From a virus (Duplodnaviria; Caudoviricetes), in IMG/VR virus record IMGVR_UViG_2695421015_000002: 64,000 nt of DNA; one strand, written 5' to 3'. Positions 172-16,480 of this stretch are shown here, piece by piece. Numbering within the stretch: the stretch's first letter is position 1; each line of letters begins with the position of its first letter. Position numbers and translations under genes: made by a program. Below the pieces are notes generated by a model. That model worked only from the letters and a program-made list of their open reading frames with translations, did not search any database and was not told the origin of the DNA.

Positions 172-188
172 TCGGAGCCGATATCTTG

Positions 189-267
189 ACCTCCGCTTTC
201 GGCGCATAGGGGACATGGCCGGACTTGCTGCTGGCCCGACCCGGTCGCGAATGACCCAACCAGACAT
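189..267. repeat. Palindromic intergenic element R1 (central + right unit)
   Basis: ACCTCCGCTTTCGGCGCATAGGGGACAT ... GTCGCGAATGACCCAACCAGACAT; related to copies at 8272, 13026 and 15396. Confidence 0.7.
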
Positions 268-301
268 TCATGTGCTAACCGGCCGTCTAGTGGGCAGATG
301 A

Positions 302-2011
302 TCAGGACGATCGAGGTGGAAGTGGCAACAAGTCAGAGGCCGTATCCTGCCCGGTGCCAACATCGCTGTCTTTCAACCGGTTCGGATGTAGCTCGCCCGC
401 AGCCTCAAGTGCGGGATATGCGACTGAGCAGATGTGCGAGTGGATACGTTTGAGATCGCGCAAAACATCGAGATGGAGGGAACTCGTCTCTATGCTTTCG
501 GGCCGCGCGTCACGCAGCCGGGCCAAATGGCTTTCCGCGTAGCCGAGTTCGGCGACACGCAGCTGAGTCTTTTCCGCGATCAGCGAGCGAGCGATACGCA
601 CGTCCTCGTTGATGAAAACACTAAAGGCAAGTTTCAGGTTCTCAATAATGCGCTGGTGAAACATCGCGAGTTCCGTCGCTCCCTCCTTCGAGAACTCGTA
701 TTTGTGCTTGATCTTCTTGCTGGCCAACTCCATCAAATTCTTGTCGATGATGTCGCCTATATGTTCGAGGTTGATGGCGAAAGCGATTATCTCCATGGCG
801 CGTTGGCCATCCCGATCATCAAGGCTTTCGCGAGTCACTTTGGTGACGTAGAGTTTTATCGCTTCGTCCAATCTATCGACGATGTTGTCCATGCGCGAGA
901 CTTCGGCCACGAGCTTGCGGTCGTTGCTCATCAGTGCCGTCATCGCCTGTCGCAGCATGCGCTCGACGACATCACCCATGTGCAGTGTCTCGCGGGCGGC
1001 GCAGGCTAGCGCCACGGACGGCATGTGGATCGCCGTCTCATCCAGGTAGAGGGGTGCGGATGGATCGGCCGCCTTTGGCGGGTCGGGCAGCAGCCGCGTC
1101 AACAGGGATGCAAGGCCGTCCAACAGGAAGACGAAGGCCAGCGCCAGGACCACGTTGAAGGCCATGTGGAAATCGGCGGCCATCCGGGCGCCATTGGGAT
1201 CAAGTCGCGCAAAGAGGTCTGCGATCGGCTGAATGAAGGGCAAGACAAACGCGACGCCGGCAGCGCGATTGATCAGGTTCCCGATCGGCAGGCGACGGCT
1301 TGCCGGGTTAGCAGAACTGCCACCTTCCAGCAGTGGATTGATCGCGCTGCCAAGATTAGCGCCGAGGACGAGCGCGAGGGCCGCGACCGGACTCACGAAC
1401 TGCGAATAGGCGAGCGACATGACGAGCAACACCACCGCAGCGCTGGAATGGGCCGCCCAGGTGAGCGCAGCGGCGATCAGGACGCACAAAACGGGCGCGC
1501 CTGTGATCGTGGCAAGAAGCGCTCGTACACCTGGAGCATTCTCGGCTGGGGCGAGCGTATCCAACAGAATATGGAGAGACAGCAGCATAAGGCCAAGGCC
1601 GATCGCCACGCGGCCTAGGTCGCGGGCCAGCCTGCGGCCGCCGAAGTTGAATGCCAACAGGCCCACCAAAAACAGGACGGGTGCGACCGCCGAGATGTCG
1701 AACGAGAGGGCTTGCACGATTAATGTTGTGCCGATGTTGGCGCCGAGCATGACGGCCAGAGCCGGGACAAGATCGATGAGGCCACGCGCAGCGAAGGACG
1801 TCATCAGCAGGCCGGTCGCCGTGCTGCTCTGTAGGAGCGCAGTAACGCCGATCCCGGCCAGCAGCGCCAGAAATCGGTTCCGCAGCGCCCTGCCCAGCAC
1901 CTGCCGCAATTCGGAGCCGAACGCGCGCATGATCCCGCTACGGACCATGTGCAGGCCCCACAGGAGCAAGGCAACACCGCCCATCAAGTCAAGAAGAACA
2001 ATGCTTCCCAT
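302..2011 (-). CDS. Na/Pi cotransporter family protein (YjbB-like) with C-terminal PhoU-like domains
   Basis: QSSTAT and HSSAA motifs, GANIGTT/GANLGS repeats, many TM helices, C-terminal LEHIGD and DLKRI segments. Confidence 0.92.
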   Translation of the reverse strand: MGSIVLLDLMGGVALLLWGLHMVRSGIMRAFGSELRQVLGRALRNRFLALLAGIGVTALLQSSTATGLLMTSFAARGLIDLVPALAVMLGANIGTTLIVQALSFDISAVAPVLFLVGLLAFNFGGRRLARDLGRVAIGLGLMLLSLHILLDTLAPAENAPGVRALLATITGAPVLCVLIAAALTWAAHSSAAVVLLVMSLAYSQFVSPVAALALVLGANLGSAINPLLEGGSSANPASRRLPIGNLINRAAGVAFVLPFIQPIADLFARLDPNGARMAADFHMAFNVVLALAFVFLLDGLASLLTRLLPDPPKAADPSAPLYLDETAIHMPSVALACAARETLHMGDVVERMLRQAMTALMSNDRKLVAEVSRMDNIVDRLDEAIKLYVTKVTRESLDDRDGQRAMEIIAFAINLEHIGDIIDKNLMELASKKIKHKYEFSKEGATELAMFHQRIIENLKLAFSVFINEDVRIARSLIAEKTQLRVAELGYAESHLARLRDARPESIETSSLHLDVLRDLKRIHSHICSVAYPALEAAGELHPNRLKDSDVGTGQDTASDLLPLPPRSS

Positions 2012-2399
2012 TGAGCTGCACGCCTCGTGTCGATGCAGGTGCCGGCCCTTTGGTAAATAGCGCCGTTAGATGGTCAGTTCCAGTGCTGAATTTCGCGGTG
2101 GCCTGTTTTGAACTTGGGTTCGGAACCGTGCCGCTCTCGCTATTCGGCCAAGAGAATTTGTGCTAGATTTCCGATTGTGCGGCCCCTGGTCGCGCGTCCT
2201 ACTATGACAAATGACTTAGCCCTGCCCGGCGCGATTATCCCCCGACACCGAGCGGGGCTTTTTATTGGCCGCCTCACTTGGCGGCCTCTTTCATTCGGTC
2301 TTCAGAAACGCCTTCATAGCGGTAATCCGCTTGATCTGTCCGCTTCCTCTTGGCGCGTCAGAATAAACGTTCCCCAAATGCGTTCCGGCTAGTATCAGA

Positions 2400-2709
2400 C
2401 GAGCCGGATCAATACGTTTCGACCAGCTACGTTGAGCGGGGCGCCGGTTCACTCGCCTGACGAACGGCATTCTCAAAGAAGCTAGACAACCACGTCTCGG
2501 CGGTCCCGCTATACGTTGCCCACTACAACTTCTGCAGCGTTCATGAGGCCCAGTGGACGACGCCTGAGAGGGCGCTCAGTGTTGCCGCCCGCGCCTGGAC
2601 AGTTGCGCAGCTTGTGGACGCGGCGCTTGCCGATGCGCCAGCGCTGCCAACTGAAACGCCGCCTGATCGCCGCCGCAAGTTCACGGTAATTCATGGAGGA
2701 AAGCTCTAA
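2400..2709 (+). pseudogene. IS1-family transposase C-terminal remnant (frameshifted)
   Basis: Pieces translate as STSYVER, RRFTRLTNG and FSKKLDNHVSAVPLYVAHYNFC...WTVAQLVDAAL, split over frames. Confidence 0.75.
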
Positions 2710-3144
2710 AAAACACAACCGCAGAGAAAGTGCCGGAGAGGCCCTATTGTGGTGTGGGTTCGCAATCCGCCGACGTCATTAAATTCCGTTTTAGAAGCAC
2801 TTCGGTTGTGATGCTCGTTTCGGACTTGGCGTTTGGGTCGCCCTTTAATATATCCCGGATGCACATGCATTAGGTGACCAATGGTGAAAGAATCCAAATT
2901 CTTCCGGAAGCAGGCCGACAAGGCCGAGCGCATGGCGCGGGCTGTCTCAGACGCCGAAATTGCCGAACGCTTCCTAAACATGGCGAGGGCTTATCGCGGT
3001 CAGGCGGATGTGCTGAAGGCTAAGAAAAAAGTCCGGCAAAAAGCTATGATGCTGACAGCAAGCGTCCGCCAGTCAGATAAGGCCCATTTATGGCCTCAAG
3101 GAGAAAGTACAAATGACCCTGTCTTGGGGCGGGGCGTTACAGCA

Positions 3145-3528
3145 ATGGCAAAGTCATCAAAGCTTGTTGCGACAAAGCGCGGGCGGGTCTTGTTGGTGAG
3201 AAGAAGGCGGGACCGGTTATGGATGTTCCCGGGCGGGCGCAGGCGCGGGCGAGAAACGGAAAAAGATTGCCTGCGCAGGGAAATCCGGGAGGAGCTTCCA
3301 AAGCTCAAACTGGGGCGGTTGAAGCTCTGGAAAGAGGTCAAGTCCAAGAACCCCAGATCAGGACGGAAGATGAACGATGCTATATTCATCGCTAATAAAG
3401 CCTCCGGTCATCTCGCGATCGGTGACAAGAAGGAAATAGACAAGGCGACGTGGCGCAAACCGCGGGGCATCCGGTTAACACCGACCTCTCGTTACATCCG
3501 CGACAAGCTGTTCCCCAAGCGAGGCTAA
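3145..3528 (+). CDS. NUDIX hydrolase (the ORF track fuses it to an upstream small protein starting at 2881)
   Basis: WMFPGG-x5-E-x7-REIREE Nudix box. Confidence 0.8.
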   Translation: MAKSSKLVATKRGRVLLVRRRRDRLWMFPGGRRRGRETEKDCLRREIREELPKLKLGRLKLWKEVKSKNPRSGRKMNDAIFIANKASGHLAIGDKKEIDKATWRKPRGIRLTPTSRYIRDKLFPKRG

Positions 3529-3905
3529 CTATTTTCGGGTTTGGCCCATCACGTCATTTCGCTGCGCTGCGGAATTGATCGCTATCGGGGCATAGCGGAT
3601 GATCAGTGTCCATGTCAGGCGGCCTTATCGTTGTCGTTGTTGGGCTTGCGGAGCCCATCGAGGCGGACCGCGAGAACGTGGATGTTGAGCGTCACCTGCT
3701 CCTTGCAGGTGAAGCCGGCCCGGTCCCGGTGGGTGTGCTTAAAGCTGATCTGATCGACCACCACCGTCGTGAACGGCAGGCGGTGGCGAGGCGGAACGCC
3801 AATGGCGAACATGTTCTTCTCCAGGTTATCTGCCCAGCATGTGCAGCAGGGTCAGGGCAAATGGGATGGTTGCGAGCAAGAGGACGCCGCATGCCCTCTG
3901 GCTGA

Positions 3906-4178
3906 TCATGCGAACCCGACCGTCTGACCACCGCGGATTAGGACGGCGACGAAGCCGAAGTCCCAGGAGCGATCATCATTGCGCTTGCGGCTTGGCTTCA
4001 CGCGGAAGCCATCAGCTCGCTTCTCGATGATGGCTTTGTTTCCGGCCTTCTCGGCCGCACTCGGAGACACGTAGAGGCGATCGGCATCCATGGCCGTTCT
4101 CCAGATCAGGAATGTTTGAGGGGGTGGTTCAGTTTGGGCGGGCGATCCCTTGAGCCCTTTTGCGAGCCCGTCGTTCAC
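3906..4178 (-). CDS. Phage hypothetical protein
   Basis: Last of a packed - strand series of small ORFs. Confidence 0.5.
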   Translation of the reverse strand: MNDGLAKGLKGSPAQTEPPPQTFLIWRTAMDADRLYVSPSAAEKAGNKAIIEKRADGFRVKPSRKRNDDRSWDFGFVAVLIRGGQTVGFA

Positions 4179-4278
4179 GCCTGCTCTTGTTCAGCTTTTC
4201 GCCGTACAGCTCGCGCTTCCGTTACGCATTGTACGTCTTCAGGTCGGTGGTGTAGACGATCACCGAAGGGTGCGGCAT

Positions 4279-4452
4279 CACACCGGCTCTTCGTCTTTGG
4301 TGTCCACCATGATCGTGAAGCGCTGCGAGACGATCCCGGACTTCTGGACTGCCTCAAAGCTGTTGGTCTTCGCGTTATCGATGGTGAAGGCCTTCTCCGT
4401 GAGGGCTTGCGCCAGCAGCTGGGCTAGGTCGCGGGTGGAGTAGAGTCGCATT
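4279..4452 (-). CDS. Small phage hypothetical protein (57 aa, MRLYSTRDLAQ...), below the ORF-track cutoff
   Basis: GAGGAGG SD before the ATG; fills the gap in the operon. Confidence 0.55.
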
Positions 4453-4657
4453 GAGCCTCCTCAAGACGGGCGTGGTGATCGTTGATGCGGGTCAGCGCCA
4501 GGTCGAGCTGGTTCATTAGCTTCCTGGCCTGGATAGGATACATGATCCCGCTGAAGCGGGTGCCACCGCCTGGACCGTAGATCGTGACGGACACGCAATC
4601 GTTCTCGCCATCATCCACGCTCCAGGGCGAGCAGAAGCCGGTCACTACTTCACGCAT
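4424..4657 (-). CDS. Phage hypothetical protein
   Basis: Overlaps its neighbours in a coupled operon. Confidence 0.6.
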   Translation of the reverse strand: MREVVTGFCSPWSVDDGENDCVSVTIYGPGGGTRFSGIMYPIQARKLMNQLDLALTRINDHHARLEEAQCDSTPPAT

Positions 4658-4871
4658 TGGTCGTCCCCAGATTGAATTTCGCCAGCCAGCGGGGGCCTAG
4701 ATCATTGCGGAGCCGATGCAGCTCCGGGTGCTCTCGGCCTTGCTGATCGACCCAAATCCTTGCGTTCATCCAATAGTCCAACGCCAGCTTGTCCTTCCAC
4801 GTTCGGCCGAAGTGCTGAGCGAAGGCCTTCAGTCCTTCGATCTCCTCGTTGGTAAGGTCACGCTGCTTCAT
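4650..4871 (-). CDS. Phage hypothetical protein
   Basis: Coupled operon; protein-like composition (GRTWKDKL...LRNDLGPRWL). Confidence 0.7.
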   Translation of the reverse strand: MKQRDLTNEEIEGLKAFAQHFGRTWKDKLALDYWMNARIWVDQQGREHPELHRLRNDLGPRWLAKFNLGTTNA

Positions 4872-4900
4872 TTGACTTGCTCACTTTCATGCGTTCCATG

Positions 4901-5545
4901 TCAGCCTTCCTGTTCGATCAGGGTGGTATTGAACTCGGCATCGTGGCTGCCTTCGACCTCGGACCAGTCGTCGATCAGCATCTCAAGTAGCCGGGCGAGA
5001 GCAGGGGGTACCGCTGCAAAGCAGGGGTAGGAGTTCTCGGATTGAGCGCCTGCCAGCCGCAATAGCCAGGCATTGAGCCGGACCCGGGCTGCGGTGACGA
5101 TGCCTTCCTCGCTCATTTCCTCGTCAGACGGATGCTCGTCGATCCATTCGATCAGGTCCGACAGCTCTTCATCGCTGTGGACTACAAGCAACCACGCCTT
5201 GTTCTCTAAGCCTTTCAGGCGTTCGATTTCGGCGAGCGCGGCGGCTTCCGACTTGGACGGATCGTCGTCAGGCGTGTATTCTCCCCTGGCTTCTGCGATC
5301 AGGCAGCCGATCTCATCGAAATGGGGAATGAGGTAGCGGGCTTCCTTCTCGGAATCCATGATCGTGTGGATGCTATCCAGCATCGACACCAGCTTGTCGC
5401 AGACGGCGTCGCGCTTCTGCAGGCGCCATATCTCGCTGCACGCCAGATCTGCCTGATGTTCCGTATTATCCCGGTGTTCTTCCGGAACGGTGATGCCGAG
5501 CGCATTGAGAATGTTGTCGGTGAAGTCGACACAGGAATAGGTCAT
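4901..5545 (-). CDS. Acidic phage hypothetical protein
   Basis: GGAGGA SD; start overlaps the upstream stop. Confidence 0.7.
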   Translation of the reverse strand: MTYSCVDFTDNILNALGITVPEEHRDNTEHQADLACSEIWRLQKRDAVCDKLVSMLDSIHTIMDSEKEARYLIPHFDEIGCLIAEARGEYTPDDDPSKSEAAALAEIERLKGLENKAWLLVVHSDEELSDLIEWIDEHPSDEEMSEEGIVTAARVRLNAWLLRLAGAQSENSYPCFAAVPPALARLLEMLIDDWSEVEGSHDAEFNTTLIEQEG

Positions 5546-5817
5546 CACGTCCTCCGGTAGGGTTGATCCAGCCATAACCCGAGCGGGAAAAAATGCCGGA
5601 CGACAAAGCAATGCTTCTCCCGCTTCCCGACGAAGCCTTCGCCAGGAAACAGCGTGTTGTCGTACCACTCGCGATCAGTGCGATGGGTGGGAGCGTAGTG
5701 GCGCGTCCCCGTGCCGCCCTGGTCACAAGGACGAAGCCTTGCCCAGGACGGCACATGTTCCATGGTGAAGCGGTGCGGGTACTGCGCCTTCGCTTGCTCG
5801 AAGGAGATGATGCGCAT
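5545..5817 (-). CDS. Phage hypothetical protein
   Basis: Start and stop overlap neighbours; YPHRFTMEHVP...EWYDNT. Confidence 0.7.
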   Translation of the reverse strand: MRIISFEQAKAQYPHRFTMEHVPSWARLRPCDQGGTGTRHYAPTHRTDREWYDNTLFPGEGFVGKREKHCFVVRHFFPLGLWLDQPYRRT

Positions 5818-6446
5818 CAGTAGCCTCGATTCCACACATCGACGGGGGTCAGGTCGTACTTCTCGCCGAGCCACTTCACGAAATCGGCCGGCGTTTCACC
5901 CAGCTCGAAGGACTGACGCATCCGCTCACCGCCATCGTCGGTGACCAGACCCTCATAGGCCCACTGCTTTCGGGCCTCGCCCTTGCAATCGTCCTCGAAG
6001 CGCATCCAGGCGAACTGCTGCGCTACCAGCTGGGCGGCGCTGTGCGCGTCAATCAGCCCACCGCCGGTGTAGATGTAATCGCAGCGATACATCGATGCCT
6101 TGCCCTCTTTGCACACTGCATGCTTGAGCATGGCCGGGATCACTTCCCAGTCGTATGACCAGTAACTGAAGAAGTCTTCGTCACGCTTCGTCAGGATGTC
6201 GTAGATCTCCAGGCACCATCGGCCGAGGACGATCGATTGCGACCGCATCTCGCCGGAACCGCAGGTCTCGCGCATGTCGATCCATTCGAGCCGGATCGCC
6301 GCATGGGAGTGCGGGACAGCGTTCTTCCGCATCTTCTTGACGTCCTTCTCGGTGCCGAGTGTCCACTCATTGAGACATTCCCAGACGCAGAGCGCCGCCT
6401 CGACTTCGAGCGCGGTGTATTCCTTCTTAGCCGTGGTCTTGGCCAT
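5817..6446 (-). CDS. Phage hypothetical protein
   Basis: 209-aa ORF with AGGA SD and GC3-biased codons. Confidence 0.75.
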   Translation of the reverse strand: MAKTTAKKEYTALEVEAALCVWECLNEWTLGTEKDVKKMRKNAVPHSHAAIRLEWIDMRETCGSGEMRSQSIVLGRWCLEIYDILTKRDEDFFSYWSYDWEVIPAMLKHAVCKEGKASMYRCDYIYTGGGLIDAHSAAQLVAQQFAWMRFEDDCKGEARKQWAYEGLVTDDGGERMRQSFELGETPADFVKWLGEKYDLTPVDVWNRGY

Positions 6447-7288
6447 TGTTGTCTTCCTGCTTGGTGTTGCGACGAAACCGGCGGCGCATCATCGCGCTGA
6501 CGCGGCTTTTGGCGCGCTTCGAGCGGTTGTTGCTGTAGGTTTCGGAGGGATATTCATCGTGGCCGGGACAGCAGCCATATTGCTTGCGGTCTCGACCGTA
6601 ACCCTCTCAGTGTCCGCATGTGCGGCGTCCCGAATGACGCAAGGCAGGCGCTACACTGAGAGGGGTGATTTGTTGGTGGGCGAGGCGTGCTTCACCGGCT
6701 TTCGCCTCCACCGTGTCTCGCTGTCGCTACCACCATCGCGACCTCATCCGAGGTCCGGGCCTGTTTTCACCGGGAGCGCCCGGCTTCACTTCATAGGGGC
6801 GGCACCCCTACTAGCCCGGCGCGACCCGGGCTCGTCTCGCAAATGGCCCTAGCAGATTGTTCGTGCGCTGCTGGCCGCACTCTGCGTCCGGTCGCTCGCG
6901 GTTTCACCGGTCAGTCGAATTGGATGGCCGGATAGCGCCGGCCTCGCCACCGCGTTTGTGTCGCGGCAACTATGAGCTTCCGGATTTCTCCCCGGTCGCA
7001 AACTTCCCTACGTCATGTCATGGTGGCCATCATCGCCAGGCGTGGACCAACACCTATGTGGCTAGGCCGGTTTGAGGTGCAGAGCAGGTAACACTGCTCG
7101 CGTGGTCCTGCGGGTTTCCCCAGCCTTTGAGTGCAGACCGCTTCTACTGCACTCCGGGGCCTCGTTACGCCGCCTCCTTGTTCTTGGAGGCGAGCGCGGC
7201 ACGGCGTCGCAGCATTCGCACCTGAGTGCGACTGCCGTCGAGACGTGTTACTCTTTGCCAGTCGTCCTCAAGCCTTGATGAGGATCGA

Positions 7289-8263
7289 ATGGACCGGCGG
7301 GATTTGATAGCGGGTACTGCGGCACTGCTTGTTTCGCCACGGCGTTCGTGGGCACAGGGGCCGCCTCGCCGGGTTGGCTATCTTGATACCGCGCCCCTGT
7401 ACTTGCCAAACTACAAGGTGTGGCAGGACAGTATGCGCAATCATGGCTGGATCGAAGGGAAGAACCTGATCGTTGATTACCGGTCAGCCGAGGGGCACGC
7501 CGAGCGCGTAGTGCCTTTAGCGAACGAGCTTGTCGCGCTCAAGCCCGACGTGCTCGTTGGCCCGAGCTCGCAGGAAGCCCTAGCCCTGAAATCGGCAACT
7601 GCCAGCATTCCGATTGTTTTCTTTGCTGTGGGCCACCCCGTGCGGCATGGCCTCGTCCAAAGCCTGCCGCGTCCCGGCGGCAACGTAACGGGTCTGTCAA
7701 CCATCGTACCGGGAAATTTCGTCAGCAAATGGATACAAATCCTGCGGGAGACGGTTCCTGCCGCCTCAAAAATTGCGGTCGTGGTCAACCCGCACAATGC
7801 AGATCACAGGTTGGACGTAACCGAGGAGTTGCCCGAAATTGCCCGGAAGCTGGGCGTGACTTTCCAAGTACTGGAGGCGACCACGGTGGAGGAACTCGAC
7901 ATTGCCTTTGCCTCGGCCGCAGCCCAGCACGCCGATGCAATTCTTCCTATTGGCGATGCATTGACCGTTAATCACGTCACACGAGTTACCGCGCTGGCGG
8001 CGGAGCATCGTCTGCCCGCGGTCTACGGCTTCCGACTGTTCACCACCAATGGCGGTTTGGTTTCATACGGTGCCGATATAACCGATCTGCTCCGCCGTGC
8101 AGGCGACTACGTCGATAAAATTCTCAAAGGCACCAAGCCTGCCGATCTGCCAGTCGAGCAGCCGACCAAGTTCGATCTGGTGATCAACCTCAAGGCCGCA
8201 AAGGCGCTTGGCCTCGAAATACCTGCCTCATTGCTCGCCCGCGCCGACGAGGTGATCGAATAA
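7289..8263 (+). CDS. ABC transporter substrate-binding protein (ABC_sub_bind family), orphan
   Basis: Twin-Arg-like N-terminus DRRDLI; SLPRPGGNVTG, GGLVSYG and PADLPVEQPTKFDLVINLKAAKALGL motifs. Confidence 0.92.
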   Translation: MDRRDLIAGTAALLVSPRRSWAQGPPRRVGYLDTAPLYLPNYKVWQDSMRNHGWIEGKNLIVDYRSAEGHAERVVPLANELVALKPDVLVGPSSQEALALKSATASIPIVFFAVGHPVRHGLVQSLPRPGGNVTGLSTIVPGNFVSKWIQILRETVPAASKIAVVVNPHNADHRLDVTEELPEIARKLGVTFQVLEATTVEELDIAFASAAAQHADAILPIGDALTVNHVTRVTALAAEHRLPAVYGFRLFTTNGGLVSYGADITDLLRRAGDYVDKILKGTKPADLPVEQPTKFDLVINLKAAKALGLEIPASLLARADEVIE

Positions 8264-8271
8264 GGTGGCCT

Positions 8272-8390
8272 ACTTCCGCTGTTGGCACTTTTCCGACATG
8301 CCGGAGCGGTCTGACTATGTCCGTTCCTCGGGGCAGACCGGAAGTGGCCGAACCACGGTCGAAAACGACGCGATTGACCCCAAAGCGGGG
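8272..8390. repeat. Palindromic intergenic element R2 (left + central + right units)
   Basis: ACTTCCGCTGTTGGCACTTTTCCGACAT-17nt-ATGTCCGTTCCTCGGGGCAGACCGGAAGT ... GACGCGATTGACCCCAAAGCGG. Confidence 0.75.
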
Positions 8391-8409
8391 CTTCGCCATT
8401 CGCGTTAAT

Positions 8410-8631
8410 TTACGCGGCGCGTTCCTTGTCTGACTGTTCCTCGACGGTGGTCGCGGTTTCTTCCAACCCCTTTTCGTAATTGCCCGCGAACCTCTCGATA
8501 CTGTCGGCCCACATCCTCAGCATTGAGACTTGAAAGTGCATAATTGGCTTCAAGGCATTCATGCCGATTGCTGTCGCTGCGGTGATGCGCTCTTGGGGGT
8601 CGCGCGCGAAACGGTTTGCGTTGTCTGCCAT
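8410..8631 (-). CDS. Small helical hypothetical protein
   Basis: GAGGGAG SD; 73 aa ending in AA. Confidence 0.65.
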   Translation of the reverse strand: MADNANRFARDPQERITAATAIGMNALKPIMHFQVSMLRMWADSIERFAGNYEKGLEETATTVEEQSDKERAA

Positions 8632-10337
8632 GCTGTTTGCTCCCTCGCTCTGGTGTTACGGCCTAAAGCTAAGTGCCGGGTTGTACACTGCGTGAATCTA
8701 GACACCGGGCCAAAGCTTGATCTGCCGCGAGTCTCGCACCTCGGTCGTCATGCAATTCGTCCAGTTTTTTCAAATAATGGAGCACCAGCGGGTCAGGTGC
8801 AGCGTTTATGAAGCACGAGTGGCTTCGCTCGCCGCAGCCTGATGGGTCCCAAAACAGGGTGGGGTCTTTTGGAAGGCCAGGGGTCATTTCTTTCGCCGCG
8901 TCCGGAATTGGTGTCCTGATCATCACGAACGTTTCAAGTCGCGTGATGACAATCGTCAGAGTCACGTCACATTCATGTGGTGGTCATAAGAGGTTCGGCT
9001 GGGCAGACGTTGGTGAAAATCAATGTATTCGGACAGTCAATTTGTAGCATTGGAAATAATGTGCCGTGAGCGGGCTACGCTCACCAAAAAGGAAATGGAA
9101 CACTGGCAGGCAGAAACGGAATACTGGCTGGCGGAAGCAGAGGAATGGAGGCGATTCCGGGAATCAAAAGAAGTTCAGTGTCTAGAGGCGTAGGCTGCGG
9201 CCAGTCACGCGGCCCGGCAAGATGGTAATTTGTCGGCGCGAAGCGCTCGCTACTCACGGCCGGCGCCGCGCTCCCCAATTGGTCGTAACCAGGAGCGCGC
9301 GGTACGCCGGGTCTGTGGCGTACTGGATAGCAAGATGCTTCCCGTGAAATCACTTTCCGTTCCCGGAACGTCCTTTGGCCTCCGCCGACGGTCAGTTTTG
9401 GTTCGCTACGGAAAGAAATGATCCAGACGATGCCCGCGGCGCTCATGGCGAGGACAATGTAACCCCGCTGCCTGCACAAACCAAAATTGCCGGTCTCTCG
9501 TCATCCCGTAAAGGCCGGCACATTCAGTTTGGCGTGCCGCTCGGCGAGGTCGATGTCGTTGAACTGGTTAACACCGGAGCGGGACTGGATGACGATATTC
9601 TTCATGGGACACTCGTTTGCAGGCTGTTTGCACGAAGGCGAAAGATAATGCAAGAGCAAACTTTCGCCGCAAATCTGTGAGAGAAAAGGGGCTTCCGGAA
9701 ATTCCGGGGAAAATCCCAAATAAATCCGTTTGGGCCCCGAATTTCTCCCGCTCAGGCCTATTTTCCGAAGGCCGTCCGCAGGACCTCGAAGGCCTCCCGA
9801 ACGAGGGCCGAGGGGATACCACAGGACCCCAAGATCATAGCCGCGCCGGCAAGGGCGTGAGACTGATCAGGGGTAGGGGACGGGATCATTGAGCACTCGC
9901 GATAGAGTGCGTTGAGCAGTTCGAGCATCCGTTCCTCCGTTGCGTTGATTGCGAAGAAACCTCTTGAAAATCAGCACAAGTGAACGGGCCGCGGAATCGC
10001 GGGCCGCCGGACAAGCACACTCTCAAGAGGGAGAAGACAGGTAAGGCTAAGGAAGAGCTGAACTGGCCGGTGAACTGGTCACAGGGGTCAGCTACGCTTG
10101 CCTTGAGCTGGTAGTTTTCACGCAGACACAGCTGGAATTGCCTCGAAAACGCAGGCAACACCGGATATGTCGTCGTTCGCTTCTTTCGTCTCCCTTAAAA
10201 GACAAATTGCGATTTTCACTCGCCAGAGCACGAATTTGCACCCCAAAACCACTAAATCTAGTGCAAATCAGGTGCAAATCGGTACTCAGGTATGCAAATC
10301 GACGGGTTTGTATCGCCCGTCGATCTACATTTTGTGT

Positions 10338-10544
10338 TCAGTATTTCAGCGGCGTGTTCTGCTCGATCAGATCGTTGACCAGGAGCACGCAGTTGAAGCC
10401 GGTGGCATCCTTCTCAAGGGCTTCGGCCCACATCGATTTGAACAGAGCGATGTCGTGGGCATCGAGAGGCTTGCGAATGAGCCGGCGAATGTCCCGGAGC
10501 TTGCGCCGGGCGGTGTTGAAGCTGGGATGCATCACCAGATCCAT
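10338..10544 (-). CDS. Phage hypothetical protein
   Basis: GGAGG SD; part of the - strand series. Confidence 0.65.
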   Translation of the reverse strand: MDLVMHPSFNTARRKLRDIRRLIRKPLDAHDIALFKSMWAEALEKDATGFNCVLLVNDLIEQNTPLKY

Positions 10545-10611
10545 GGGTGACCTCCACAGACATAGCCGGCGATGGCGCAGGCCAGCACGAAGCAGGCCTC
10601 GATTGACAGTC

Positions 10612-11031
10612 TCATGGCTTCCTCGTGGTCAGTCCGAAGCCACCGATGGCGATGCGCTTGGAGTAGGAGTTGATCTGGATGGCGCCGCGGGCACGACCGG
10701 AGGAGTCCTCGATCGTGAAGGTCTGGCGCCTGCGGTAGTCGGGGATCTCGCAGTCCCGATCGGTGCGTTCGGGAGCCTTGCGCTTGGCCGGACGTTCGAA
10801 CCTGACCCGCGATTGAGGGGCAGGGGAGTAGATCGACTTGGGCTCGCGATGACGCCCGATCGGATCCGGGTGGAAGTTGAGACTGTCCAGCTCCAGGTCA
10901 CGCTTGAACGCCGCGTAATCGTCGGATGACTGCTGATCCGGCGTAATGGTCTCGACGTGGGTATGCGCCCTGCGGACTTTCTGCTGACGTGCCAGCTCAT
11001 GGGCACGCAGAATGGCTGCGACCTTGCTCAT
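10612..11031 (-). CDS. Phage hypothetical protein
   Basis: GGAG SD; part of the - strand series. Confidence 0.55.
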   Translation of the reverse strand: MSKVAAILRAHELARQQKVRRAHTHVETITPDQQSSDDYAAFKRDLELDSLNFHPDPIGRHREPKSIYSPAPQSRVRFERPAKRKAPERTDRDCEIPDYRRRQTFTIEDSSGRARGAIQINSYSKRIAIGGFGLTTRKP

Positions 11032-11058
11032 CGCGATATCTCCAATGGTGGGTTGGTT

Positions 11059-11418
11059 TCAGGCCGCGTTGCGGACAGGGACGAGCATGGAATCGAGGAC
11101 GTCTTCCCAATCCCAGCCATCGTCGAGCAGCTGATCCACGAAGGCGCACACTTCGATGTCGGTCATGCCGCCGGCATTGCCGTGGATGGCCAAGAGATCG
11201 TCGTTGGTGGCCTCGTCCGGCAGGTGTTCGATCATGTCCCGCAGGTTGTCGCAGATGTTGCGTTCCACGGGGGACAGGCGCAGGCCTGCGTCTTCCTCGA
11301 TCCATCCGGTGTCCCAGAAGGGGCGCATGGCCGGCATGGTGATCGGGTTCATGTTGATGGGCACGCCAGCACGACGGGCACGCGCGCCCATCTCCTCGAC
11401 TTCGAGGTGGGTAAGCAT
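11059..11418 (-). CDS. Acidic phage hypothetical protein
   Basis: GGAG SD; 119 aa ending in AA. Confidence 0.7.
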   Translation of the reverse strand: MLTHLEVEEMGARARRAGVPINMNPITMPAMRPFWDTGWIEEDAGLRLSPVERNICDNLRDMIEHLPDEATNDDLLAIHGNAGGMTDIEVCAFVDQLLDDGWDWEDVLDSMLVPVRNAA

Positions 11419-11600
11419 CGATCGCTCCAGAAATAGGGGGTGGGGGTGGCTGGCCAGAGGCCGAAAATTGCCAAAATGAAAGAGGCAGGCGTGTTCTGAA
11501 ATCGGCGCAAAATATCCCCCGCCCAGTGAAGGGCGAGGGTCGAGCGTGGGTGAGGATCGCCAGCGGTAGAGCCGCCGCTACCGCGCGGGGTAGGAGGGGC

Positions 11601-12344
11601 TTACGCCGCCTCCGCCATTTCCTCCGCCGGAGCAGACTCCGCCCCTAGCATGTCATCGACTTGCGCCGCCGTGCTGGCCTTCTCATGCATCAAGCCTTGC
11701 AGCCGGGCGATTAGCTTAATCAAATCGGTATCGGCGAGCTTTTCAGCGCGGGCAAAAATCGCCTCGATTTCGTCTTTCTGCTTTGGCGCTTTGGCCGGTT
11801 CCGATAGGGCGCTGCAAAGCTTCGCAAAGCTTGCGCCGTATGTTTCCCGGATAAAGGCCTTGAACGCCTCCGCCAAAGCGTCACCGCCCGCACCGGCCGT
11901 TTTCTTGGCCAACAAATCGCGGATGATATCGGCATGATTGACGCACACGTCTTTCATGAGGCGGAATGACCACGTTTTGAGCTTTGCCAGCCCTTCCACG
12001 AGTCGCGCGCCCTTTTCCTTTTTGTCGATGTAGTCAGAAACGGCCGACTCGCGTTCCTTGCCACGCTTGGCAAGCGCTTGGTTCAAGATATCGTCCGAGT
12101 CGCGCCACACGACTCCGCCCCGGTTAGCGTATCGTTTGAGGAAGGCGCGGAATGTGGCCTTGTTGGCCTTGTCCGTAATATCTTCCGAGCCTTCCGCACG
12201 TTCCACTTGACGGGCTGCCATCACAAGGCCAAGCGCTACCGTTGCGGTAAACGCGGCCGAGTCATCGTCCTTGACCGCCTTGATTGCTTCCGCAATGGCG
12301 ATTTCGCCAAGCGTCTTATTGGGAACCGTATTCGACATTTGCAT
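11601..12344 (-). CDS. Helical phage hypothetical protein, first gene of the leftward operon
   Basis: 247-aa Ala/Lys-rich ORF with AAGG SD, ending EAA. Confidence 0.75.
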   Translation of the reverse strand: MQMSNTVPNKTLGEIAIAEAIKAVKDDDSAAFTATVALGLVMAARQVERAEGSEDITDKANKATFRAFLKRYANRGGVVWRDSDDILNQALAKRGKERESAVSDYIDKKEKGARLVEGLAKLKTWSFRLMKDVCVNHADIIRDLLAKKTAGAGGDALAEAFKAFIRETYGASFAKLCSALSEPAKAPKQKDEIEAIFARAEKLADTDLIKLIARLQGLMHEKASTAAQVDDMLGAESAPAEEMAEAA

Positions 12345-12848
12345 TTTACCTTTCGTCGTTTTTCCGTAGGGGCGGAGAAAATTCCGGTTTTAGACATGGC
12401 TCTCCCGTTCTCTGAAACCGCTTGGTTTCTGAGTTCCACGCGACAAGAGTCGCCTCATGAGAGTCCGGGAAATGTCTAGTCCGAAAACGCTCCGTTTGCT
12501 TTCACACAAATCACCCTAAAGGACCGCGAACCGGAATGCAAACGGAAAAATGCAAATCGGTATTAGACTTTGGTCTAACGGAAAATCCGAAAAGGGTTTC
12601 CCGTGGTCCTTTTCGGAATACCAGAATTTTTTATGGGAACAGGGGGTATGGGTGGGGCGTCCCCCTCATACTTCGAATCACCAAAAGGCCATTTACCACC
12701 CGCCTCAAGCAACCCAGCCAAATGCCTGATCTGGCTGGCAGAAACGGGGCTGGCGTAGCCCGGCGGCCCGCGCCTGGACCAAACCTGCCTGGCCGCATGA
12801 CGGCCCTCTTGGGCTTCCCTGGCCGTCCGTGAACACGCCACCCCAGAT

Positions 12849-12980
12849 AAAAAAGAACCCCCTTTTCGGGGGGCCAAGTCGACGAAAGTTGCCTGTGAAA
12901 GCGGAGCCCAATTAGCACAGTCCGCCCGAAAATGCAAATAGTTGGGCAAAAAAGAACCCCCCTGATTGGGGGTCCAAGTC
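12849..12980 (-). terminator. Two tandem near-identical rho-independent terminators (12849-12880 and 12948-12980)
   Basis: Direct repeat AAAAAAGAACCCCC...GGGG(G/T)CCAAGTC; on the - strand each is a GC hairpin followed by TTCTTTTTT. Confidence 0.65.
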
Positions 12981-13025
12981 TAAGCAAGGTTCAGTCGGTT
13001 GACCAACGGATGCGCCTGGAATGCG

Positions 13026-13096
13026 GTGTCTGCTTTCGCCAACTGCGGACGTGCCGTCGCACACGTCCGGGGGAGCTATGTGCCAGAAGCTGACAT
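13026..13096. repeat. Palindromic intergenic element R3 (central + right unit)
   Basis: GTGTCTGCTTTCGCCAACTGCGGACGT ... GGAGCTATGTGCCAGAAGCTGACAT. Confidence 0.75.
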
Positions 13097-13203
13097 CACT
13101 TGATCAGCTCGTCGGGGCGAATGAGCAACGACGGCGGCATGGCGAGACCGAGCGCCTTGGCCGTCCTCATGTTGATGATAAGTACGAACTTGATTGGCCT
13201 CTG
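13096..13203 (-). pseudogene. C-terminal 35-codon remnant of an ABC_sub_bind paralog
   Basis: Translates QRPIKFVLIINMRTAKALGLAMPPSLLIRPDELIK*, matching the tail of 7289..8263 ([35 protein letters not shown]). Confidence 0.85.
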
Positions 13204-13323
13204 TGACGGACTCTCTACCCATTCTTGGAGGAATTTGCGGGGCTCAACCATTAGCGCCAACCCGTTGTTGCTCACCGCATTGTTCGTCTTCAGTTGAAAG
13301 AACCCAAAGCGTTCGGATAGGGC

Positions 13324-14948
13324 TTAAAATATTGTGAGTGCCAAGACTGGATTACTCCCATCATAGCGAAGTTCTCCGCCACCAAGATTTCTTCCGTCTC
13401 GACTGAACCAGACTCGCTGTCCAAAACCGCCAGCTTGCGAAAACGCTGTCAGTATTCCGCCACCAAAAGTGCACATTGCAAGAACTGGTGATGTACCATC
13501 ATAGGCCAGTTCCCCACCACCAAGATTTCTTCCGTCTCGACTGAACCAGACTCGCTGTCCAAAACCGCCAGCTTGCGAAAACGCTGTCAGTATTCCGCCG
13601 CCATAACCGCACATCACATGAACCGGAGATGTTCCTTCGTAGCGAAGTTCCCCGCCACCAAGATTTCTTCCGTCTCGACTGAACCAGACCCGGTGCCCAG
13701 CACCACCAGCTTGCGAAAACGCCGTTAGCATTCCGCCATCATAAGCGCACATGGCTTGAACCGGAGATGTTCCTTCGTAGCGAAGTTCCCCGCCACCAAG
13801 ATTTCTTCCGTCTCGACTAAACCAGACCCGGTGTCCAGCACCGCCAGCTTGCGAAAACGCCGTTAGCACTCCGCCATCGTAAGCAACCATTGCTCGCACA
13901 GGAGAGGTGCCATTGTAGCGCATCTCTCCAATTCCGAGACCTTCTCCATCTGGGCTGAAGTGAATGGCGTGACCATAACCACCGGTATTCGAAAACGCTG
14001 TCAAAACTCCGTTGGCGTATGGTAGCATTGCTGCTACGGGAGAACTACCCTTGTACAGAGGCCGACCGGACCCGAGCATCAATCCATCTTGACTCCAGTG
14101 CACTACATTGGAGAATCCTGTAAGTACGCTACCTCGCGTTACTGGTGAATAAAGCCGGCTAATCGCTGTAATGTCATCGGTAGTCAACGCACGCGAACCC
14201 ACGTCCTCGTCGTATGTTGCAAACATTACTGAACCCTGGACCGCGGAATGAGCCAAGCCTAAGGCGTGCCCGATTTCGTGCGTTGCGATGCTCTGAATAT
14301 CAATCTGGTTAACTGCGATATTCAGCGCCCAAGGTTCTTCATTATCGAAATGTACATCACCCGCAAATGCTCCAGGTGGCGGGTAAAACGCATGAGCGAG
14401 CACAGGGCCCTGTGGTCCATCAAATGGTGATCCATCACCGTGGTCGCGAACTACAAACCTAACATTTATGTCGTGAGGTTGGGTATCAGCAACTTCGCGG
14501 AAAGTAAGGGGGGCACCACGGCGGCGGCCCAAGCCCCGAACGCTGCCACAAGCGCAGCTCGCGCTTGCGCGTCGGTGATCGCTCCACCAGGGAACTGGCT
14601 AATAGCGAATGTTAGGTTGGTTCTTTCCCATCTAGGCCCGGCCAGTACGTACCTAGAATGGAAGTCGGGATCGGGCACTCCACATCGCGGCATATTTAAG
14701 AGCGCGGCGGTCCCAGCATCGGTTTCGCCTGTTTCCGCGAGACGGTGGCGCTTCTGAAATTTGCGGAGAGCGCGCTCCGTCTCGTCAGAGAAGTCGTTAG
14801 TTACCACTGCAGTGCTTGAATGCAGATCGACTCCGTCAGGACTTGTCGGTGAAGCGTATCCAAACCTGGAGAGGTATCGGTTCAATAGCTCAACGTCTGC
14901 GCTTTTATCGCCCTTGCGTAAACCTACCGGGATTAGCTCTCGTGCCAT
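13324..14948 (-). pseudogene. M10/matrixin metalloprotease with PG-binding domain and C-terminal 46-aa repeats, split by a frameshift at a C6 tract
   Basis: Upstream ORF has ALRKFQ...L.ETG (PG-binding) and the PRCGVPD cysteine switch; downstream ORF has HEIGHALGLAH and the Met-turn SVM; frames switch at G6 14508-14513. Confidence 0.88.
13340..13920 (-). repeat. Tandem 138-bp (46-aa) coding repeats, probably beta-propeller blades
   Basis: ACCAAGATTTCTTCCGTCTCGACT recurs at 13381, 13519, 13657 and 13795; more diverged copies extend to about 14130. Confidence 0.9.
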
Positions 14949-15395
14949 GGTACTGCTCCGCTACTCATGATGCGAGACGGACGTAAGGGTATTGCGGCGG
15001 GTGCCAGCTAAGCGCTCTCGACGGACGGTCGTTAATTGTTTTTCTGGAGAGAAGGTGCCTGATCTGCAAAACGTTGGGAGCGCTCTTTGGCGGAACAATG
15101 CGTGGCGCCCACCGGGGTTTGGATTGCAACGCATCATTGTTGATGACGCAGCCAAACTTCGGATCGGGAGCTGGAAGCTGCCGCCTATTGTCGCGGTGGC
15201 GCTGGGTAATCCCAAAACGCCTGTGACCTGATGAGCTGAGGCCGAGAGACAACCTAGTGTGAAGAAAAGCTGCTGTGGCCGCAAGTACGTTCGGTTTCAC
15301 TCGACCCTCCGCTTGCCATAGCGATGGGTATCGGCCGTGAGTAGAACTTTCCTTTGACCTAGATCAAGGGTGATAGCAAATGCATCGTCTCCGGG

Positions 15396-15468
15396 ATGCC
15401 CGCTAATGGGTCAAACCCGGACTTCCGCCTTTGGGGGCCGCACGTCCGCTTCCGCCGAGTGCAGACAT
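15396..15468. repeat. Palindromic intergenic element R4 (left + central unit)
   Basis: ATGCCCGCTAATGGGTCAAACCCGGACTT-17nt-ACGTCCGCTTCCGCCGAGTGCAGACAT. Confidence 0.75.
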
Positions 15469-15883
15469 TGGTCCGCGAGGGCAGTCCGTTGGTCAAGCTG
15501 CGCAATTCTGCTTAGGGAGGAAAAGGTGACGGCCCGGCCATGGCCTGGGGGCTGGTCGGCTTCACCAAGCCGTCCCTTGTCGAGCGGCGCCACATGGCCA
15601 CCGCCCTGTCGACACCCGCCATTCGCTTTTGTTTCCGTGTAATCCAGGACAAATTTGCCGCAAAAGAGGTGCAAAGCGTATGCCAATGGGCCCCTGCGAA
15701 TTGCGTATGGCCGGCGAGCGCTTCGCGCTTATCTAATCAAGGGGCGGCGGCGTTGACCCGGCATCACGATGAGGGCGTCAATGACCTGTCCCCGCTGCGA
15801 GGTAGAGACGAAACCTGTCGAGCGACTGAGCGACGGCAGGCTGGTCTACCGCTGCCGACTCTGCCGCCACCTGGTCTGGAAGA

Positions 15884-16480
15884 TCAGAACTGATCCAGGA
15901 CGCGACTATAGGCAGGGTGCGAGCGGTTCTTGACCTTCACCCAGTCGCATGTGCGGGGCCGGTATAGCCGCTCGCGGCGCTTGGAGACCAAACCCTCGAG
16001 ACCCATACGGCAGGCCGCCTCGAACAGCTCAGGCCCGATCTCGCCCTGCTCGAAGGGTGCAACGAAGATGCCATCAGGCCGGCCGCGCAGGAGCTGCTCC
16101 AGGTTCGTCTTGCGCAGGTGCAGCGGCAGACCCCGCAGGTCGTCGCCGTTATACGCCAGCAGGTCGAATGAGTATAACTGGACCTCGTGGTCGTGCTTGC
16201 GGCTGTGGAGTGCGTTGAAGTCCGAGATCCCGTCGACGCCGAGCACGACGGCTTCGCCGTCGATGATGAACTGGCTCTTGCGGATCTTCAGCGCCGTCTC
16301 GACGATCCAGGGATAGCGCTTGGTGAGATCGTTACCGCCCTTCGAGAGCAGCCGGACCTTGCTGCCGTCGCGCTCCAGGCGCAACCGGTAGCCGTCGTAT
16401 TTCACCTCGTGGATCCAGTCTGGGCCGGCCGGAACAGCCTTCTTGACCGTGGGGATGCAAAACTCAATGTGCTTGGTCAT
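15884..16480 (-). CDS. ATP-dependent DNA ligase adenylation domain (LigD-like, no OB domain)
   Basis: HEVKYDGYR, IDGEAV, FDLL, EGLVSKR and WVKVK ligase motifs. Confidence 0.9.
   Translation of the reverse strand: MTKHIEFCIPTVKKAVPAGPDWIHEVKYDGYRLRLERDGSKVRLLSKGGNDLTKRYPWIVETALKIRKSQFIIDGEAVVLGVDGISDFNALHSRKHDHEVQLYSFDLLAYNGDDLRGLPLHLRKTNLEQLLRGRPDGIFVAPFEQGEIGPELFEAACRMGLEGLVSKRRERLYRPRTCDWVKVKNRSHPAYSRVLDQF

Follow-up and report, generated by a model that had tools for sequence, protein, structure and literature searches.

Palindromic sites in the cargo arm of a prophage are copies of a host intergenic repeat family, and two of them belong to the ends of a candidate mobile unit

The viral DNA of record IMGVR_UViG_2695421015_000002 (Caudoviricetes), analysed here over a stretch of 64,000 nucleotides (the window), carries four related elements, R1 to R4, between positions 189 and 15468. 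The original prediction took them for the sites of a recombination system that captures gene cassettes. We find that R1–R4 are members of an abundant host intergenic repeat family, comparable to repetitive extragenic palindromic sequences (REPs) and bacterial interspersed mosaic elements (BIMEs), to Rhizobium-specific intergenic mosaic elements (RIMEs), or to elements resembling miniature inverted-repeat transposable elements (MITEs). R3 and R4 form parts of the two ends, L and R, of a discrete 2.5-kb unit, which is probably a non-autonomous cargo element, similar to a MITE or a mobile insertion cassette (MIC), that is moved in trans. R1 and a further repeat, X, bound a second module. Numbers preceded by G and L designate genomes and loci, respectively. 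Some of the searches included two unpublished genomes, G016 and G557, on which none of the conclusions depends.

The repeat family was defined by a profile seeded with 18 R2-type copies aligned over ~110 nt, which gave 208 matches at E<=0.01. After three profile rounds, the single-contig genome of 9,092,136 bp contains 272 matches at E<=1e-3, of which 116 are full-length. A blastn search with R2 likewise retrieves dozens of copies from its own genome with 85–97% identity. The profile consensus of ~135 nt consists of three weakly palindromic units of the type GTCCG(N10-15)CGGAC; on inspection, the stems are 5–6 bp long (GTCCG/CGGAC) and the loops 10–15 nt. The copies are extragenic: 259 of 272 (95%) overlap filtered open reading frames (ORFs) by less than 20%, compared with 27% of 5000 random 120-nt windows. 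They are distributed chromosome-wide but clustered, with 0 to 35 copies per 250 kb. By the orientation of the neighbouring genes, 86 intergenic copies are convergent, 65 divergent and 64 + 57 tandem. R2-type DNA was found in three of five sampled genomes of the same genus and in none of 195 genomes that represent 61 further genera of the family, and the repeat family is genus-restricted within the sample searched. The host genus is probably Bradyrhizobium, because the closest phage, one plasmid match and one record with L/R ends (Bradyrhizobium liaoningense) all come from it. A literature search, with supplements outside its range, returned no description of the repeat family or of the 16-mer tested. 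The sites had been tentatively read as those of a system that loads host genes into prophages. Specificity for cargo or prophage is contradicted by at least 272 copies across the chromosome and by 50,697 phage records, in which neither R2 nor the 2.5-kb unit has a match.

The profile was run over all 64 kb of the window with filters off. The six best matches belong to R1–R4 only, and the next-best match has an E value of 1.6, which confirms the four related elements reported earlier. The matches are as follows.

8268-8384, + strand: R2, units 1-2-3, E 2.5e-29
15479-15395, - strand: R4, units 2-3, E 9e-8, with a weaker + strand echo
13099-13022, - strand: R3, units 1-2, E 0.015
188-229 and 220-268, + strand: R1, in two pieces, units 1 + 3, E 0.11 and 0.47

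This assignment of units replaces the predicted one, in which R1 and R3 had held the central and right units and R4 the left and central units. R1 contains units 1 and 3 and no central unit, R3 contains units 1 and 2, and R4 contains units 2 and 3; R3 and R4 both lie on the - strand and are therefore inverted relative to R2. R1 is backed independently by 4–5 other genomic copies at 88–90% and by copies of 80–88% in at least 8 other genomes of the genus, which keep its boundaries (186-192 to 257-273). The earlier inventory was correct for R1–R4 and did not include repeat X (3540-3599) or the 31-nt terminal modules that lie outward of R3 and R4. The palindromes proved weak. When folded as single-stranded DNA against 200 shuffles, R2 alone is more stable than its shuffles (z -2.47; 2/200 shuffles as good), and R1 (z +0.18), R3 (-0.47) and R4 (+0.37) fold no better than theirs. 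The central units of R3 and R4 are direct repeats with 18/23 matching positions; this earlier count was reproduced on recounting.

The segment 12980-15515 is a discrete 2.5-kb unit with composite ends of ~110 nt.

12980-13099, + strand: L end, with the terminus 5'-CTAAGCA, a 31-nt terminal module and R3 (units 2 and 1, on the - strand)
15395-15515, - strand: R end, with the terminus 5'-CTAAGCA (from 15515), a 31-nt terminal module and R4 (units 2 and 3)

The two terminal modules (12980-13010 and 15485-15515) are mutual inverted repeats of 31 nt with 74% complementarity, and the adjoining central units of L and R add 28-nt arms that are 75% complementary. Combined, L and R constitute an imperfect inverted repeat of ~75 nt. 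The homology of other genomes to the window begins at 12977-12980 at the L end (7 loci) and ends at 15513-15515 at the R end. In G015, the L and R ends (94–95% identity) are only 0.9 kb apart and surround a 169-codon ORF, and the homology to the window is bounded exactly by the termini. The proposal that R3 and R4 bracket a cassette-like unit was therefore well founded, since the same ends surround other genes elsewhere.

Of 200 other genomes of the genus, 14 carry L ends and 8 carry R ends, and a pattern scan with one genome per species identified 23 stretches with L/R ends. Most carriers hold 1–3 ends; G313 holds at least 19 and G320 at least 15. Across 31 aligned ends, the termini are identical (CTAAGCA), and the bodies of ~105–125 nt are conserved and fall into two types, L and R. 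The same 31 ends have 31 different outer flanks, in which neither a conserved target nor direct repeats are apparent. Both inner arms (unit 1 in L and unit 3 in R) are 85–97% conserved among ends that enclose unrelated cargo and therefore belong to the ends, not to the cargo. L and R face outward as a pair in 16 cases at a spacing of 0.4–7.2 kb: the window; G015, G138 and G149; L057 and L047; three in G313; one each in G317 and G315; and five in G320. G137 contains one R-R pair. In other collections, two solo R ends lie in viral contigs and a partial R-end match is present on one Bradyrhizobium plasmid; the corresponding search with the L end gave no match.

The cargo of the pairs is diverse and its orientation is not fixed. 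Pfam annotation of the window unit and 8 further pairs revealed a MHYT histidine kinase, SAM-cyclase-AAA proteins (adenylate cyclases), Crp- and MarR-type regulators, a sulfatase with a MetA-pathway protein, HxlR with a FAD oxidase, and a glycosyltransferase; the interiors of L078 and L081 have no domain match. L078 is a 400-nt gene-free form situated at the recO stop codon. Beside it lies a 217-nt repeat (L078:1006-1224), which has three other copies, 96–98% identical, in G320. One L-cyclase-R unit is found at two loci of a single genome (L074 and L075). The interiors of the two copies are 80.5% identical over 3579 nt and their ends 93.6%, and the flanks are unrelated from the termini outward. 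A related cyclase gene with 86% identity occurs without L/R ends in another genome.

A second module, 186-3599, is bounded by R1 and X and carries Na/Pi transporter and NUDIX genes.

186-270, + strand: R1, ~85 nt, marking the left edge of block 1, 15 nt past the stop (169-171) of a conserved phage gene
302-2011, - strand: Na/Pi cotransporter fused to PhoU domains (Pfam PF02690, PF01895)
2881-3528, + strand: NUDIX hydrolase (PF00293; PHROG 1198)
3540-3599, + strand: repeat X, ~60 nt and dispersed, marking the right edge of block 1, 15 nt ahead of the stop of phage gene 3615-3812(-)

Homology to the Bradyrhizobium phage BDU-MI-1 stops at 168, just left of R1, which places R1 at the exact left edge of a cargo block, as had been proposed. 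Gene 3615-3812(-) is conserved, with a homolog in BDU-MI-1. Copies of X with 85–91% identity are present in all five genomes searched. In G007, each of the three R1 copies pairs with one of the three X copies 1.1–2.0 kb downstream on the same strand, and these pairs keep the order and strand of the window around differing genes, which are a methyltransferase-like gene and an alpha/beta-hydrolase-like gene (both putative, read from translations) and one more segment. G018 contains one R1/X pair, 2.3 kb apart. The Na/Pi-PhoU gene is the sole copy in the genome by tblastn, which makes the strain's only gene for this transporter a prophage-borne one. It shares 70% DNA identity with chromosomal genes of relatives, whose cotransporter loci have the gene in common with the window and R1 not. 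The chromosomal locus that is syntenic with the relatives' gene lacks it here, and its flanks are 78% identical to three relatives; this locus (G000:C1:3889688-3893064) holds 3.4 kb of other sequence.

R2 had been considered a border site as well. Instead, it lies in the middle of a block, directly after a gene.

7226-8263, + strand: ABC transporter substrate-binding protein gene (PF04392, E 2.4e-53), inside block 2, with no counterpart in BDU-MI-1
8264-8395, + strand: R2, full-length copy (units 1-2-3), directly 3' of the PF04392 stop codon, mid-block 2

This arrangement recurs genome-wide: 11 of 42 PF04392 ORFs are followed by a family copy within 250 nt, and 12 of the 272 family copies follow a PF04392 gene. 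A tblastn-based count places the repeat at 17 of 40 binding-protein gene ends, and a homologous binding-protein gene in G012 (75% identity) has a full family copy downstream. R2 is an ordinary 3' appendage of the PF04392 gene. The 380 nt directly after R2 (8396-8777), which include a 73-codon ORF (8410-8631, - strand), match single loci of four other genomes in the genus at 80–86% identity.

The window is part of a prophage of ~120 kb. Its terminase is 81% identical to that of BDU-MI-1 (121,342-bp record), and the ORF map is reverse-collinear with this phage from the ribonucleotide reductase at window -50.2 kb as far as +71.4 kb, including the ligase, tRNA-Met and all structural genes. The limit at +71.4 kb adjoins the integrase region of the BDU-MI-1 record, and the integrase homolog lies outside the window. 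Three blocks interrupt the collinearity.

172-3614: non-backbone block 1, a break in BDU-MI-1 collinearity
6447-9766: non-backbone block 2, a break in BDU-MI-1 collinearity
12339-15886: non-backbone block 3, a break in BDU-MI-1 collinearity
15884-16480, - strand: phage ATP-dependent DNA ligase, adenylation domain (PF01068), 66% amino acid identity to the BDU-MI-1 ligase; first backbone gene rightward
16000-61800, + strand: prophage backbone (tRNA-Met, terminase, portal, capsid, tail, DNA transfer protein), collinear with BDU-MI-1, with zero repeat copies

The G+C content is 55–58% in the blocks, 61.0% in the backbone and 61.4% in the genome. All window copies fall in the blocks, in agreement with the proposal that the left arm is cargo inside a prophage. 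The whole prophage contains five family copies, R1–R4 and one at window -11545..-11467, and all five are in collinearity gaps. In BDU-MI-1 itself, unfiltered searches with the family profile and with the L/R-end profile gave no match at E<=0.1. The reported absence of copies from the structural arm holds by profile; ~1.5 copies would be expected in 48 kb at genome density, and the absence is therefore not significant alone. Because the repeats occur only in host-like modules that are absent from the sister phage, we infer that they entered the prophage together with host-type DNA. A 17-kb prophage segment (-46.9 to -29.9 kb), also absent from BDU-MI-1, holds host repeats with up to 83 genomic copies.

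Two of the host-type modules are bounded by specific recurring repeat pairs, and we propose that such modules carried the repeats into the prophage. A trans-acting enzyme would move the L/R units without target duplication. Several observations weigh against such movement. No direct repeats flank the units of the window, G015, G138, L057, L074 and L075; a 2-nt TA duplication within CTAG would be masked, as every end contains CTA/TAG. Empty sites were not found at the window unit, recO and L075 loci that were examined, and insertion was therefore never seen directly. The left flank of the window unit lacks a homolog among 300 genomes of the genus, and BDU-MI-1 lacks the ORFs that flank the unit; the recO intergenic region is too diverged for alignment; and the L075 flanks were not found joined. 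Inside 11 L-R pairs (interior ORFs; 9 by Pfam), no transposase was detected save IS1182/IS5-type genes in two. The copies of the cyclase unit differ by 20%, which implies that movement was not recent. Approximately 14 ends are solo within their own 8-kb stretch and three end pairs face inward, neither of which is predicted by a simple cut-and-paste transposon. The hairpin loops of the L and R central units match at 8/11 positions as direct repeats and at 4/11 as inverted repeats, a bias that the original model would predict. For the R1/X module, no pair was present on one contig in G001, G004 and G017 (three of the five genomes searched, two being drafts of hundreds of contigs), and R1 shows only weak similarity to the reverse complement of X, with 20 invariant columns of 96.

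No cognate transposase acting in trans on the L/R ends was identified among the candidates looked at, which were IS1182-like, IS630-family, IS91 and Y1 enzymes. The IS1182/IS5-type transposases within L077 and L039 were rejected as the mover, being only 25% identical to each other. The IS1182-like gene of L077 belongs to an independent insertion sequence (IS), which has inverted repeats of its own and is flanked by GGCC at either end; the gene is 25% identical to that of G149. This IS (L077:557-2164, 17-nt inverted repeats) is inserted in the L end, and a remnant sits at the same position in L075 (~603-640). The same insertion position in two different units suggests that the IS targets the L-end repeat. 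The IS630 family was considered for its CTAG target and TA duplication, and the IS630-family elements of G320 have unrelated ends. Regarding IS91, truncated Y2 genes sit outside the R end at two loci, as neighbours and not as unit parts; a PF04986 scan gave no match in the own genome, and the control was likewise without a match. Mobilisation by a REP-associated tyrosine transposase (RAYT) was also rejected. The genome has two PF01797 matches, and both Y1 genes are flanked by other repeat types, with no family copy within 4 kb. These RAYT-like genes (G000:C1:5632396-5632716, L001; 2731800-2732132, L002) each have their own inverted repeat type, and the repeats that flank L001 and L002 represent two further repeat families of the genome. 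Mobile DNA often neighbours the ends, as with an IS5 beside L in G015 and the truncated IS91 genes at two R ends. Resolvase genes adjoin two ends outside the unit, and one of them is cut mid-domain by an L end. A scan of neighbouring genes only, with no co-occurrence analysis, linked no recombinase to the sites.

A wider reading of the same units is possible, and we put it forward tentatively: the L/R units, and perhaps the R1/X units, might be undescribed repeat-bounded cassettes of Bradyrhizobium and related soil bacteria, mobilised in trans by an HUH-type or site-specific enzyme with no target duplication, that shuttle single signalling, transport or enzyme genes among the chromosome, IS-rich regions and large temperate phages. 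The ends of these units are ~110 nt long and mutually unlike, and they combine host REP-like hairpin units with a 31-nt terminal module.

Alternatively, the units may be passive passengers, that is, pieces of host chromosome gained by illegitimate or repeat-mediated homologous recombination, with end pairs that merely reflect repeat-rich neighbourhoods. The chromosome-wide, intergenic and strongly clustered placement of the family fits this explanation, as do the positions of R2 and R3, which both follow PF04392 gene ends as at 11/42 such genes, and of the L ends at three loci (window, G015 and L059), which follow a PF04392 gene or fragment. The failure to find a transposase, a target duplication or an empty site, and the many solo ends, also agree with it. 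However, passive capture does not readily produce the sharp CTAAGCA termini shared by 31 ends with 31 different flanks, or the 16 outward pairings of L with R although most genomes hold only 1–3 ends. Nor does it readily explain an entire L-cargo-R unit at two loci with homology bounded by the termini, or an end that interrupts a resolvase gene mid-domain. We therefore regard passive capture as unlikely and favour the non-autonomous cargo element.

A role at the level of RNA or DNA structure is improbable as the main function of the repeats and is compatible with the other readings. The repeats would be 3' hairpins that end or stabilise transcripts, or REP/BIME-like protein-binding sites, and their border position would mirror gene ends. 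Consistent with this idea, 172 of the 272 copies have a co-oriented ORF upstream, 86 of the 272 are flanked by convergent genes compared with ~25% of random intergenic points, and R2 folds better than its shuffles. In contrast, the folds of R1, R3 and R4 are not better than those of shuffles; the 116 full-length copies yielded no consensus structure in RNAalifold; Rfam at gathering thresholds returned tRNA only, with no match at repeat sites; 65 of 272 copies lie between divergent genes; and the sharp termini and the pairing are left unexplained.

The original model, in which a circle with a complete left-central-right site uses its central unit to recombine into a minimal target with a recombinase acting in trans and thereby loads host genes into prophages, is the least probable of all: the - strand order terminal module-2-3-cargo-1-2-terminal module is indeed a circular permutation of 1-2-3 with unit 2 duplicated, the central-unit loops do match as direct repeats (18/23), and site-specific recombination predicts the observed lack of target duplication, but the inner arms are conserved whatever the cargo where the model predicts cargo-dependent arms, no empty minimal target was found (0/23 stretches have two termini ~100 nt apart), no recombinase is linked among the neighbouring genes scanned and the resolvase genes near two ends lie outside the unit, R1 and R2 misfit the scheme, and no copy occurs in 50,697 phage records.

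The interior of the window unit contains a peptidase gene and a gene fragment.

13096-13323, - strand: C-terminal fragment of a PF04392 gene, 75 codons, startless, followed by R3 on the same strand
13324-14960, - strand: matrixin-type (M10) metallopeptidase with an N-terminal peptidoglycan-binding domain, in two overlapping frames (PF00413, PF01471)

The end of gene 7226-8263 matches the PF04392 fragment in inverted orientation over 106 nt. In the M10 peptidase, the peptidoglycan-binding and cysteine-switch part occupies 14466-14960 and the catalytic part 13324-14598. The frame changes in a C run near 14,510 (within 14440-14640, - strand), which indicates a pseudogene or else a homopolymer error in the assembly. 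The C-terminal half of this peptidase contains 46-residue repeats, encoded by five 138-nt tandem repeats (13220-14047) that are 60–87% identical to the reference copy. A pair of similar hairpins that resemble terminators (A-run, GAACCCCC...GGGGG), 99 nt apart, is located at 12849-12873 and 12948-12972, immediately left of the L terminus. ATP-dependent DNA ligase genes or fragments lie within ~0.5 kb of an R end at three unrelated loci (window 15884-16480, L046:5650-6564 and L041:2440-2670); their orientations differ, and a fragment in G137 is inside the unit.

Should the L/R units prove mobile, they would illustrate how single accessory genes pass between a large temperate phage and the chromosome of a soil genus important to agriculture with no resident transposase, and the 5'-CTAAGCA ends would provide a sequence-defined handle for finding the enzyme. 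The repeat family also carries a warning, in that palindromic sites at the borders of prophage modules can be the host's own intergenic repeats.

Among known repeats of the genus, the GTAG- and CGTC-tagged REPs of Bradyrhizobium have stems of 8–9 bp (CGTC), loops of 4–5 nt and a short tail, whereas the present units have 5–6-bp stems, 10–15-nt loops and no evident tag (Di Nocera et al., 2013; PMC3733652). The family resembles REP, BIME and REPIN sequences in being composed of high-copy extragenic imperfect palindromes that form mosaics, often at gene ends, with a strain-variable copy number and with IS elements inserting into them. It differs from RAYT-mobilised REPINs, as the two RAYT-like genes of the genome carry other repeats and three of the four window copies fold like shuffles. 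RIME and the neisserial NIME/dRS3 are intergenic mosaics of ~100–150 nt, built of palindromic modules in alphaproteobacterial or neisserial chromosomes, and may promote recombination and the exchange of genes next to them. The present family appears similar to them in its organisation as intergenic mosaics of palindromic modules and differs in its restriction to one genus in the sample.

Integron attC, res and dif modules resemble the L/R unit in that one or few genes lie between imperfect palindromes with no target duplication. Unlike these systems, the L/R unit has no integrase, attI or cassette array; its cargo orientation is variable, its sites come from a chromosome-wide family, and empty sites were not found. 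A further comparison is with MITEs, with MICs such as MIC231, and with MITE-flanked units such as the integron mobilisation unit. The L/R unit departs from them in the lack of a target-site duplication and of a matching autonomous IS among the IS630-family and IS1182-like elements checked, in its long (~110 nt), mutually different ends made of host REP-like units, and in its solo ends and inward pairs. Within the family, MITE-type terminal inverted repeats with defined ends were demonstrated for the L/R ends only. Like MITEs and MICs, the L/R unit has sharp-ended terminal inverted repeats, no transposase and varied passenger genes, and it occurs as a 400-nt gene-free form, as several copies in some genomes, and as one unit at two loci.

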